From assembly GCA_965207735.1 (NCBI GenBank), contig OZ242296.1, positions 1,184,001 to 1,248,000 of the forward strand: a stretch of 64,000 bases of DNA, given 5' to 3'. Under the pieces are notes generated by a model. That model had not been told where the DNA came from and searched no databases. It was given only the letters and a program-made list of their open reading frames with translations. The position numbers were made by a program, and so were the translations under genes. Below are positions 27,700 to 55,185 of the stretch, in pieces (position 1 is the stretch's first letter; each line of letters starts with the position of its first letter). The DNA is from Candidatus Versatilivorator sp. Lineage in GTDB: Bacteria; Acidobacteriota; Terriglobia; Versatilivoradales; Versatilivoraceae.

Positions 27700-28819
27700 C
27701 TAGCCCGCATTTCTCACCAGGTCGCTGGTGCCATGACGAAAAGTAGTTTATCTTCAGTACTTTGATTGGCTCCATGGTAAGGGCTTGCGGGTAGCAGACA
27801 GCGCTGGGCATGCCCTGGCTTGTTTTTTCCCCTTCAACGCGCACATGCTCCCTCGCGCGTAGTGACCGCTACGCTCTTCGGTCGCGAGCATGCCCTGAAG
27901 GGAAAAATCCTGCGCCATGATCATGCCCCCTGGGTAGAGTCGAGGACTGGCGCGTTGACTATAGGGTCCGGTGGCTATTCCGTCGCTTTCGCTTCGGGCC
28001 TCAGTCCGGCTCCCTTATCACGTTTCCAGTCCCCGCTCTCCGAACCGGACGTGCGGTTTTCCCGCATCTCGGCTCTCCAGTGGGATCATGCGTCTCGCAC
28101 ACAGGTCCCCGCTCGCATCCGTGGACGACTCCTATGGGATTGGCACCCGTCCCCCACTCCATCCACTTCCGCTCCCGGGTTGCCGCCAGGCCTGTTGATG
28201 CCCTGACGACGCCGTCCTCCTCCGACGACCCTTTCACTTTTGCATGTGATGCTTCCGGAGTCTCCGGCCCTTTTTTGGTCGGGGTTTCAGGCTTTCGCCA
28301 CTCCCGGGACCCTTCCCCCTTCGGTCACCGCTCCTCACCTGAGGCCCCTTCCCTCCACCGGTATTACCCGGCTTCTCCGGTACTACAGGCCTCTCCGCCA
28401 CCCTGTCGGCCTAGACTGACTCTCGCGAGCTTCCGGTTCGGTGCGTGCCTCACCACCCACAGGGCTTCCCATGTTGCTGCCTTCTTCCCCTTCCATGCGT
28501 GCCAGCGCCACTACCCCGGCGGGTCCAAAGGGGTGCCCGCGTCGCTCGCTTCCCCCTCCGTCTTCGGCCTTCCCCATTTCTCAGGTGGGTCGGCCCCCGC
28601 ATTGCCCGTTTCGAGGCCTGCTCGACGTTCACTCGCGTTCCGGCCCGCATGCTCGCTGAACCGCCTTAAGCGGCCCTTTGACACCAGAGGGCTTCAGACC
28701 ATATCGTTACCTCCATGATCCGCCCTGGCTGCTACCAACCGGAGCGACAGTTGTTGGACGGGTTTCGCACCCGTTGGAAGAAGGCGCCTTTCCATGGCGC
28801 ACTGAGAAATGCGGGCTAG
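27700..28819. mobile_element. MITE-like element (~251 bp without the intron) with 22-bp TIRs; right TIR interrupted by a group II intron
   Basis: Left CTAGCCCGCATTTCTCACCAGG (27700-27721); removing the intron joins CCTGG (27929-27933) + TGAGAAATGCGGGCTAG (28803-28819) into its exact reverse complement; internal nested hairpin ~27823-27907. Confidence 0.8.
27934..28802 (-). mobile_element. ORF-less group II intron (869 nt)
   Basis: 5' GTGCG, 3' ..CTCTAC, domain V at 28075-28042 (GAGCCG-A-GATGCGGGAAAACCGCACGTCCGGTTC); domains I-III closely similar to the intron at 53191-55185; only traces of the ORF ends remain in domain IV. Confidence 0.9.
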
Positions 28820-53190: not shown

Positions 53191-55185
53191 GTAGAGTCGA
53201 GGGGAGGCGCGCCGGCCTTAGATCGAGGGAGTCGCTGTTGCCGGCGGCTTTCGCCACTCGCCGGTGCCTCAATCTCGTTCCTCGCTGCGTTTCCTCGCCC
53301 CCGCTCGTCAAACCGGACGTGCGGTTTTCCCGCATCCGGCTTTCAGTCAAGATCATGCCTTCGCCCTCGGAAGGCTCTGTGGCTTCGACCCCAGGCAAGT
53401 GAGTCCATAGGTTTTCCATAGTCTCTCGTCCGAGAAGCGCACACTCCCCCCGGTCCTCACCTTGTGCTTCCGACAGAGCCACTGACGCAGCCGCCCGCCC
53501 GCGTGGCGGTCGATCGCTCGGTAGGCCGGGCTCACCTGCCCCAGAACGAAGTAGTTCGCCCACCCGGTCATCGCCCGGTTCAGGTGTTCTACCATCTGTC
53601 CTCGAAGCAGCGTCCCGTTCCTCGGCGCCGTCCACTCGCTGATCTTGCGGCAGATGCTCTGGACGCTCGCCTGGCTGGGTCGTGTGCCGATGTAGGCTCC
53701 TTTCCCTTTGGGGCGATAGTTGCGTCCGATGCGATATCCCAGAAACCCCATCGGTTCCTCCGGACACCGCAAGCATCGGGTCTTCCGCTCGTTGACCGGT
53801 AGCTTCAGCTCCTCCATGATCCGCTTGACCGCCGTCAGCATCTCTGCCGCCGGTGCCCTGCCGAGTACACGGAAGTCATCCGCATAGTTGACGATCTCCG
53901 CACAGAAGCGCCGGGCATATCCCAGCACCTTCCAGCCCAAAACGAAGCGCCGCATGTAGAGATTGCTGAGCAACGGTGAGATCGGGGCTCCTTGCGGTGT
54001 CCCCTTCCGCTCCCGGCGCCCTCGGTTCCGGCGGCGTCTGCCACCCTTCCCGTCGTCCTCCTCCACCGGCATCTCCAGCCATGCCTTGATGAGCTTGAGC
54101 ATCCTCCCGTCACTCACGCGCCGGGCAATGCTTCGAATCAGCTCCGCATGCGGAATCTCGCCGAAGTAGTTGGACAGGTCGCCGTCAACCACCTCCTGGT
54201 AACCCCTTTGCAGGAGTTCATGCACGCGTTTGACCGCGTCGTTGGCACTCCGCCCCCGCCGATAGCCATATTGCTCCGGTTGCAGGTCCGCTTCGAAGAT
54301 CGGCTCCAACACCAGCAAAGCCGCCGTCTGCGCTACCCGGTCCCGTATGCAGGGTATGCCCAAAGGCCGGAACTTGCCGGGCTGTTTCTTCGGGATCAGC
54401 ACCTGCCGCACCGGCTTCGGTACGTAGGTTCCTTCCCTCAGATCCCGCGCCAGTTCCCCCAGCCAGCCCTCCACCCCATACGCCTCGATGTCCTTGAAGC
54501 CCTCCCCGTCCACCCCGGCCGACCCGCCGTTTCGGCGTACCTGTGCCCAGGCTTCCTTCAGAAAGTCCTCTCGCCACACCTTGTCCGACAGCGCATGAAA
54601 CCGCCGCTTGGGGTCCTCCTTCGCTTTCGCATGTAGCATGGTCTGGAATTTCCGAACCCCCTCTGACCCTGTTAGACTCTTGTCAGTGGCCACGCCTTGC
54701 CTCCTTTCCATGCTGCTCTCAACTCAGGGTCCCTTCCCTCCACCGGCGTTACCCGGCTTCTCCGGTACTACCGACCCATCCGCCACCCTGACGGCCCGGC
54801 CTGCCCCTCGCGGGGTCCCGGTTGATGTGTGCCGCATCTCCCCCAGGGCTTCCCGTGTTGCTGCCTTCTTCCCCTTCCATGCGTGCCAGCGTCACTACCC
54901 CGACGGAAGCGGATCGGTGCCCGCGTCGCTCTCTTCCCCATCCGCCAACGGCCTTCCCCTAAAGACAGGAGGGTCGGCTTCCGTATTGTCCGTTTCGAGG
55001 CCTGCTCGACGTTCACTCGCGTTCCGGCCCGCATGCTCGCTGAGCCGCCCTTGGCGGCCCTTGACGCCAGAGTGCTTCAGACCATTTCGTTACCTCCATG
55101 ATCCGCCCTGGCTGCTACCAACCGGAGCGACAGTTGTTGGGCGGGGTTCGCACCCGCCAGAAGAAGGCGCCTTTCCACGGCGCAC
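53191..55185 (-). mobile_element. Full-length group II intron (IIB-like, no endonuclease domain)
   Basis: 5' GTGCGCCGTGGAAAGG, 3' ..CTCTAC; domain V 53342-53310 with AGC triad and AC bulge; removal restores the S repeat sequence GCGCCTTAG|TGCCCCTTCGTGG. Confidence 0.95.
53353..54711 (-). CDS. ltrA: Group II intron reverse transcriptase/maturase
   Basis: GSAGVDG, IPK..RPLGIP.IRDRVAQ, DGDLSNYFGEI, GTPQGAPISPLLSNLY, YADD, FLGY, GWANYF (domain X); no HNH. Confidence 0.95.
   Translation of the reverse strand: MERRQGVATDKSLTGSEGVRKFQTMLHAKAKEDPKRRFHALSDKVWREDFLKEAWAQVRRNGGSAGVDGEGFKDIEAYGVEGWLGELARDLREGTYVPKPVRQVLIPKKQPGKFRPLGIPCIRDRVAQTAALLVLEPIFEADLQPEQYGYRRGRSANDAVKRVHELLQRGYQEVVDGDLSNYFGEIPHAELIRSIARRVSDGRMLKLIKAWLEMPVEEDDGKGGRRRRNRGRRERKGTPQGAPISPLLSNLYMRRFVLGWKVLGYARRFCAEIVNYADDFRVLGRAPAAEMLTAVKRIMEELKLPVNERKTRCLRCPEEPMGFLGYRIGRNYRPKGKGAYIGTRPSQASVQSICRKISEWTAPRNGTLLRGQMVEHLNRAMTGWANYFVLGQVSPAYRAIDRHAGGRLRQWLCRKHKVRTGGSVRFSDERLWKTYGLTCLGSKPQSLPRAKA

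Follow-up and report, generated by a model that had tools for sequence, protein, structure and literature searches.

Two introns of one family in the window

The window, a 64,000-nt stretch of the genome of the acidobacterium Candidatus Versatilivorator sp. (assembly GCA_965207735.1, contig OZ242296.1, positions 1,184,001 to 1,248,000), carries two related group II introns on its minus strand. The shorter, of 869 nt (27934..28802), lacks an open reading frame (ORF) and is one of 28 near-identical copies in the genome, 22 of which are identical; the longer, of 1995 nt (53191..55185), encodes a reverse transcriptase (RT) and is one of 13 copies, 12 of them with an intact ORF. The RT/maturase (53353..54711, minus strand, 452 aa) has a YADD motif and matches TIGR04416 with 328.7 bits (cut-off 300), and no endonuclease domain was seen along its length. 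Both introns start with GUGCG and end with CUCUAC, are matched by the Rfam D1-D4 and D5-D6 models, and have the ends (5' GUGYG, 3' AY), the AGC triad of domain V and the bulged A of domain VI that define group II introns. They are 86% identical over their first 470 nt; identity is lower in the Id segment (79%) and falls to 45% where domain IV begins. A preliminary description, made from the letters of the window, had proposed a shared scaffold with compensatory stem changes, and the stems are as it described them in both introns (28600-28596/28523-28519 in the ORF-less intron, 54983-54977/54910-54904 in the RT intron). Folded alone, the Id segment of the ORF-less intron takes the modelled form but with a z of 0.15, and that of the RT intron does not take it; because these single-segment folds are weak, the structure of Id is drawn from compensation and covariation and not from energy.

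The loop of Id3 reads UGAGAAAUG in the ORF-less intron (28583-28575) and UGUCUUUAG in the RT intron (54967-54959). Introns of the family are named here after their exon-binding site 1 (EBS1), which in the ORF-less intron is UGAGAAA (guide A, 28577..28583, minus strand) and is assigned, from covariation and fold, to exon positions -1 to -7. Its EBS2 (CGGGC, 28604..28608, minus strand) is predicted to pair with GCCCG at -10 to -14, and its EBS3 (G, 28511, minus strand) has the C at +1 as partner. In the RT intron, the EBS1 of guide B (UGUCUUU, 54961..54967, minus strand) faces the exon sequence AGGGGCA over 7 nt with three G-U pairs, the EBS2 region (CGGAC, 54988..54992, minus strand) is predicted to pair through its GGA with TCC at -12 to -14, and EBS3 (G, 54895, minus strand) again has +1 C as partner. 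Both the pairing with AGGGGCA and the C that opens each 3' exon had been described before and stand. The nine-of-nine complementarity reported for the ORF-less loop is correct in its letters, but EBS1 spans about 7 nt: the last two letters belong to the closing stem (CCCA/UGGG in guide A, which folded so, and CCCU/AGGG in guide B), and a 9-nt EBS1 was rejected on finding positions 8 and 9 without exon covariation (Watson-Crick in 10/30 and 4/30 loops).

The 3' half of the ORF-less intron, or chassis, comprises a domain IV (28070..28332, minus strand) that holds a decayed remnant of an RT N-terminus and shows over 90% likeness to ORF-less introns under other guides and in other genomes, and domains V and VI (27934..28077, minus strand), with a 5-nt GAAAA loop, a long domain VI and a bulged A. 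Alpha-prime (GAGCGAC, 28541..28547, minus strand) lies at the tip of a stem-loop in Id3 and complements alpha at 28742-28750; this placement, a hallmark of class E/F ribozymes, and the 5-nt domain V loop are the features given for IIE/IIF introns in the available part of Nagy et al. (2013; PMC3753933), and statements on published systems below likewise refer to the available parts of each source. The lack of a visible endonuclease domain and a domain VI of about 100 nt agree with class F in the wide sense (basal F and g2-g4), and the RTs of relatives contain only PF00078 and PF08388 domains. In pairwise comparison with four reference introns, classified after Toro and Martinez-Abarca (2013; PMC3552965), the RT is 46% identical to that of Ni.ha.I1 (class F/g3), against 31-33% for one g2 and two g1 references.

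Covariation of guides with target exons

The pairing of guides with exons was followed in 80 regions from related genomes and 79 RT loci, with 5' ends extracted by profile. After partial, tandem-second and duplicate rows had been dropped, 152 non-redundant insertions with a full domain I remained, one more being skipped for the EBS counts. The preliminary description had proposed comparing loop and 5' exon across other copies, and covariation is what such a comparison reveals: positions 1-6 of 30 distinct EBS1 heptamers form Watson-Crick pairs with exon positions -1 to -6 in 142 of 180 cases, two loops parsed one base off being counted as misses, whereas 10,000 shuffles averaged 64 and never exceeded 91. 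All four pair types occur at the main covarying positions, and position 7 covaries weakly (17/30). The Id3 loop is EBS1, about 7 nt long, and covaries with the 5' exon.

For all 33 guide types of known 3' exon, EBS3, which is the N of GGGGUA[N]UG, has a pairing partner at +1 (21 G-C, 6 U-A, 5 A-T and 1 G-T), and it varies within the present genome, where G precedes C under guides A and B and A precedes T in two full-length guide C introns. EBS2, the segment that follows CUCGAAAC, yields a pairing score of 110 with exon positions -10 to -15 over 25 variants (shuffle mean 87, maximum 102). When all variable columns of domain I were scanned, unanchored, against exon positions -25 to +6, the top five ranks went to four EBS1 pairs and EBS3/+1, and ranks 9, 16 and 18 to EBS2 pairs with -12, -13 and -14; in the same scan, no extra EBS2a-like pair or delta-delta-prime covariation rose above phylogenetic background. 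Recognition is of the IIB type, through pairing of EBS1, EBS2 and EBS3 with the intron-binding site (IBS) that corresponds to each, namely IBS1, IBS2 and IBS3.

The family within and beyond the genome

The genome, a single 5.26-Mb contig, contains 45 members of the family under three guides. Guide A combines its 28 ORF-less copies with one RT-coding copy, and all 29 lie in ends of the IS1380 type, an insertion sequence (IS) family, where they fill 29 of 157 such sites. Guide C (UGUAAUU) is represented by one RT-coding intron, one ORF-less intron and one 117-nt remnant, which fill 3 of the 15 copies of a palindromic repeat. The RT proteins of guides A, B and C are 83-92% identical and all have YADD. 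The remnant (4260992-4261108 of the contig) joins some 80 nt of a B/C-type 5' end to the last 37 nt of the ORF-less type, likely through deletion over a short shared motif. One guide B intron (2898349-2900343) sits in sense orientation just before the stop codon of a gene that, to judge from its motifs, is methyltransferase-like.

The closest relatives are found in Terriglobia (Acidobacteriota), several of them in Candidatus Versatilivorator, and RTs at 74-80% identity occur in Alphaproteobacteria and others. A phylum-wide search for the ORF-less 3' half returned only short domain V-type matches, in 39 of 300 other genomes and at 71% at best. Among the relatives, one ORF-less A intron in genome G005 has a 50-nt insertion inside the Id3 stem, and two loci, the first of them in G011, hold head-to-tail tandem introns, an arrangement also known from RmInt2, with U as EBS3 in the first and A in the second. 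In G004, the sole intact RT of the family sits in an intron with an insertion in domain VI, and 18 equal-score matches to a second, distant RT (34% identity; for example 2586280-2587506 of its first contig) suggest another recently expanded group II intron.

Exchange of domains I and II

Trees of 34 representative introns (one for each genome, form and guide, and three outgroups) differ between the two ends of the intron. By domain I, introns group according to guide whether or not they have an ORF, and a single ORF-less group is rejected (approximately unbiased test, AU, p 1.6e-73); for this domain, the nearest sequence to each ORF-less intron comes from an RT intron with the same guide. By domains V-VI, all 11 ORF-less rows fall together (87/87) and stand well apart from the genus's RT introns. 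ORF-less domains IV-VI are 91-97% identical between introns of four guides from six genomes; their last 165 nt are 67-68% like those of resident RT introns, while the likeness to an RT intron from an alphaproteobacterium is 81%, and their domain IV, in which the traces of an RT N-terminus are faint (E 2e-4 against 120 RTs), is at a similar distance from every resident RT intron (45-51%).

Five mosaics change parent abruptly in the interval from position 335 to position 450, and their switch points lie between domain II and domain IV. Informative sites in the ORF-less C intron of this genome divide 56:3 before position 400 and 3:42 after it, and the corresponding divisions are 48:3 then 5:40 in an ORF-less B intron of G005, 46:4 then 5:38 in a mosaic of G008, 34:6 then 7:48 in one of G004, and 60:4 then 6:33 in an RT-coding A intron of G005. 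Furthermore, RT-coding guide C introns form one group by domain I and two by ORF, and in G002 RTs that are 98% identical stand behind three guides. As a visible source of mosaics in this genome, exon shuffling between copies was considered and left no sign, flanks and duplications being mostly intact (4-bp target duplications are kept in 20 of 23 paired occupied IS/MITE elements, MITE standing for miniature inverted-repeat transposable element).

The ORF-less 3' half is, as these comparisons indicate, one old lineage whose domains I-II have repeatedly been exchanged with those of RT-coding introns, and it is through this exchange that the protein-less form likely gains new targets. Homologous recombination or RT template switching would be the likely means. 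New guides could arise by two routes: on the one hand, by point changes in EBS1, EBS2 and EBS3, as UGUCUUU, UGUGUUU, UGUGUAU and UGUUUUU, which follow exon variants of one repeat, would illustrate; on the other hand, by the passing of a complete domain I to a different 3' half. The retargeting by EBS1 swap put forward in the preliminary description captures the way guide changes track targets, but EBS2 and EBS3 change too, and part of the change is exchange of the whole of domains I-II.

Targets and orientation of insertions

Both targets in the window are DNA derived from mobile elements, the usual kind of group II target. The ORF-less intron splits a 243-bp MITE of an IS1380 element (27704..28815, minus strand) 13 nt inside its terminal repeat, with CTAG on both sides; the parent IS1380 is a 1.7-kb element with the same end as the MITE, present in 21 full copies beside 35 full MITEs. 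Guide A fills all four kinds of end, left and right of IS and MITE, 13 nt in, so that insertion occurs at a fixed base in both inverted repeats. An empty guide A target lies at 57531..57548 (plus strand). The RT intron interrupts an intergenic tandem repeat array between birA and a type III pantothenate kinase gene, with units of about 182 bp and core TATCCACGAAG, the target of guide B; its 5' exon side runs over 55186..55650 and its 3' exon side over 52770..53190 (both minus strand). What had been labelled the terminal inverted repeat of a MITE and an S repeat are more fully an IS1380 element end and a repeat related to the ends of GxxExxY cassettes.

The guide B motif TATCCACGAAG occurs 213 times in 171 clusters of the genome. 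In relatives, PF13366 (GxxExxY) nuclease genes have the motif, or a variant close to it, in their vicinity in at least 13 of 25 loci, a count made without a random-locus control, and the motif faces inward on both sides of the gene in at least 10; the guide B repeat is likely a relic of GxxExxY cassette ends. The available part of the TIRtron paper (PMC3733652) mentions neither GxxExxY nor introns and does not name the B repeat. Nine loci in seven of the related genomes show GxxExxY nuclease genes flanked by inward-facing short repeats of the CCACGAAG type, and hundreds of free copies of the flanking repeat are found in the present genome; gene and repeats are possibly a REPtron-like element with a PD-(D/E)XK enzyme. 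Several of the 15 guide C repeat copies adjoin the apparent 3' ends of genes that, judging from a motif, are presumably tyrosine integrases. Guide D (UGUUAAU), common in relatives, targets IS1634 ends; it is absent from the present genome, where all 24 IS1634 ends are empty. A pattern search in an alphaproteobacterial relative gave no empty site. The reference intron Rh.js.I1 (g1), on the Rhodococcus jostii plasmid pRHL2, overlaps an annotated IS1380-family transposase gene.

That the targets are multicopy and non-coding, as proposed earlier, is confirmed genome-wide: the repeat mask, which takes up 8% of the genome once introns are removed, contains 39 of the 45 sites, the three unmasked guide A sites being diverged IS ends, and 43 of 45 fall outside genes called with our own hexamer model in a genome that is 81% coding. 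The intron sense strand is the G-rich strand in 37 of 45 copies (p 1.5e-5), or in 33-36 of 45 if local instead of global skew is used, and for guide A this holds for 23 of 29 filled as against 49 of 128 empty sites (p 7e-5). The insertions show a lagging-strand-template bias of the RmInt2 type, with the replication origin placed from GC skew only. By cumulative skew the two halves of the genome are very unequal, at about 1.5 and 3.8 Mb, and the skew reverses locally near 3.5-4.0 Mb, which suggests genome rearrangement.

Spread of the family and alternative explanations

Taken together, the data make it highly probable that the introns belong to one class F-like family in which EBS1, EBS2 and EBS3 have been matched to different repeats, which likely spreads by RNA-guided reverse splicing at the replication fork and in which domains I-II are exchanged between protein-less and enzyme-coding forms. 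The intron RNA, spliced with the help of the RT, would reverse-splice into the lagging-strand template at a matching repeat and be copied with the nascent strand as primer, as in RmInt1 and RmInt2; the ORF-less 3' half would borrow an RT in trans, and a guide would persist when it matches a multicopy, non-coding repeat that offers many sites, in both orientations and at low cost. RNA-library contigs from three studies cover the intron and its relatives at 90-99% identity, with level and strand unreadable and DNA possibly present. Several points weigh against this interpretation. The covariation counts take kin as independent and are inflated by relatedness; four copies of D-guide introns have an EBS3 U before +1 C; EBS2 is short, its register shifts by 1-2 nt between guides, and the guide B match has only 3 contiguous pairs. 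Guide B is loose, with 10 of its 13 sites in the repeat, 1 in a decayed repeat copy and 2 in unique DNA. The switch points of the mosaics were picked by eye after seeing the data, which makes their p values optimistic, and the 87/87 support of the ORF-less clade comes from 176 columns and lies below the starred level. The origin of replication was placed on an uneven GC skew, and none of the 15 RNA-contig joints listed, out of 26, is a splice, lariat or circle joint.

The targets are themselves mobile or repeated DNA and 22 ORF-less copies are identical, as would be expected if the introns had multiplied as passengers of IS1380, its MITEs and the repeats, by transposition or gene conversion instead of homing; yet the intron splits the terminal repeat, occupies four different ends as well as diverged single ends, is oriented with respect to replication where empty ends lean the opposite way, and has exons that match its guides beyond chance, so that carriage of this kind is very unlikely and homing is the best reading of the sequences. 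Still less credible, and almost certainly wrong, is an origin of the ORF-less forms without recombination, by separate ORF deletions in each guide family: it would account for the nearness of each ORF-less domain I to the RT intron of the same guide, but it cannot explain why the ORF-less introns of four guides share one domain IV-VI that is distant from the resident RT introns. Opinion can be evenly divided on a third proposal, which disputes not retargeting but its description as adaptation to safe harbours: guides would drift randomly, repeats would supply the sites and genic insertions would be purged. When IBS2 is counted in the match, the share of sites that guide A fills is similar in the mask and outside it (26/137 and 3/39, p 0.14), several distant relatives with other guides occupy varied sites, and Mohr et al. 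(2010; PMC2882425) raise purifying selection for intergenic location. Guides B (9/201 matching sites in the repeat mask against 0/143 outside, p 0.012) and C (3/16 against 0/62, p 0.007), however, favour the repeat, which requires extra recognition or selection, and several guides lead to sites equally deep in element ends, at 13 nt in both IS1380 and IS1634. Because guide A fills both kinds of site alike, the pattern can be put down to guide specificity and survival of harmless insertions; the safe-harbour adaptation of the preliminary description cannot be told apart from survivor bias, and the data show that repeats are targeted but do not tell safety from site number and survival as the driving force.

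The RT that serves the ORF-less introns is a separate matter. The suggestion that one RT might serve several guides in trans is not needed in this genome, where each guide has an intact YADD RT, but gains ground in G011, a single contig of 100% completeness in which every one of the 9 intact RTs belongs to guide D, the two A-guide RT introns are both truncated, and the 12 ORF-less copies include 4 identical ones of guide A. It is possible, though on balance doubtful, that ORF-less introns are served exclusively by RTs of their own guide family, the single A-guide RT copy here driving all 28 ORF-less copies of that guide: the genome has an intact A-guide RT intron with a domain I 93-96% like that of ORF-less A (79-92% for guide B), and A-guide RTs form their own clade (100/100). 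Such exclusive service is at odds with the identical ORF-less A copies of G011, with an ORF-less domain IV no nearer to one resident RT intron than to another, with the near-identical RTs that carry three guides in G002, and with the cross-family trans action shown in Thermosynechococcus elongatus (PMC2882425). In G008 and G009, too, guide D is the only guide of the intact family RTs, and ORF-less introns with other guides occur in the same genomes. The three genomes favour, from gene content, cross-guide RT action in trans; alternatively, the cognate RT may have been lost once the copies had spread. Domain IV is the usual docking region of the RT. A bolder proposal, which we hold to be slightly less probable than its negation, is that the ORF-less 3' half, of 865 nt, has long lived as a parasite on a parasite: it would have lost its own RT lineage long ago, be copied by any RT of the family that is at hand and outlast the saturation of its targets by taking over finished guide domains from RT-coding introns, with guide, core and RT as three separately exchanged modules of a retroelement system that naturally reprograms itself and tracks the ends of other mobile elements.

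Other features of the window

An IS1182-family element (28820..30399, plus strand; transposase 28896-30218) is inserted at CTAG beside the end of the MITE. In 9 of 13 occurrences in the genome, an IS1182 end abuts an IS1380-type terminal repeat at CTAG, and the element seems to target the same element ends as the intron. An Rfam Acido-Lenti-1 match lies at the edge of the guide B repeat array (52680-52725). Elsewhere, the window contains a tRNA gene (12692-12765) and, at 63104-64000, a tandem repeat of period 338 bp in which a hairpin-like motif of 27 nt recurs.

Comparison with known systems

In RNA structure and protein, the family resembles Ni.ha.I1 and class F, which have alpha-prime at a stem-loop tip, a 5-nt domain V loop, a long domain VI, an RT-X protein and the same Id layout (Toro and Martinez-Abarca, 2013, PMC3552965; Nagy et al., 2013, PMC3753933), and the available parts of these two papers describe no high-copy, multi-guide class F family. 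According to Nagy et al. (2013), self-splicing can dispense with EBS2-IBS2, for which they went no further than to propose a part in homing; in the present family, by contrast, 25 EBS2 variants occur naturally and covary with the target. A single scaffold with no fewer than 30 variants of EBS1 and 25 of EBS2, together with the real targets of these, forms a natural library that makes the point left open in that study, the part of EBS2-IBS2 in class E/F homing, directly testable, and the family offers a compact targetron scaffold without an endonuclease domain.

The genome combines several EBS families with different targets and an ORF-less majority, as does T. elongatus, where the TeI3/TeI4 introns, one family, are split into six EBS-defined target families, one of them in an IS200 element, with an ORF-less majority of one origin that is driven in trans (PMC2882425). 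The T. elongatus introns are of class CL1/IIB1 and have an endonuclease domain, which the RT here lacks. Their ORF-less forms arose by deletion of a resident intron and their EBS families are clades of their own, with ORF-less and ORF-coding introns separate (PMC2882425); in the present family the ORF-less 3' half belongs to a distant lineage, the same guides occur on both forms, and the domain I and domain V-VI trees disagree.

RmInt1 and RmInt2 of Sinorhizobium meliloti share with the family the absence of an endonuclease domain and the lagging-strand-template bias; their RTs are partly interchangeable, as those of the family may be, and RmInt2 also homes into IS inverted repeats, with the site on either strand, and forms tandem copies when EBS3 is U (PMC4615759). 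They differ as class D introns, 72% identical and separate elements, for which the available text describes no ORF-less chassis, and in their targets, ISRm17 and ISRm2011-2, in place of the IS1380/IS1634 ends and GxxExxY-type repeats found here (PMC4615759). In Hamiltonella defensa, c-Ha.de.I1 likewise has 29 copies in two subgroups with different sites, one of them in an IS, but it lacks an ORF-less partner (Leclercq and Cordaux, 2012; PMC3522654). One 700-bp gene conversion between its subgroups was treated as a distance distortion and is not stated, in the part available, to have moved target specificity (PMC3522654).

In the literature searched, with most subscription papers outside its scope, there was no direct precedent for recurrent domain I exchange between ORF-less and RT-coding introns or for chimeric group II introns, and no report of IS1380 ends as group II intron targets. 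A survey of ORF-less and class F introns by Simon et al. (2008; PMC2525955) may bear on this novelty. Group II RNA and RT are usually seen as co-evolving, and natural retargeting is usually ascribed to EBS point changes; movement of whole targeting domains between lineages would be a second route to new specificity, and one that keeps ORF-less introns mobile. EBS-diversified families, RTs acting in trans and homing into IS ends are known already from T. elongatus and RmInt2, and what the present family adds to them is modular exchange, triple covariation on a class F scaffold and repeat targets other than IS.

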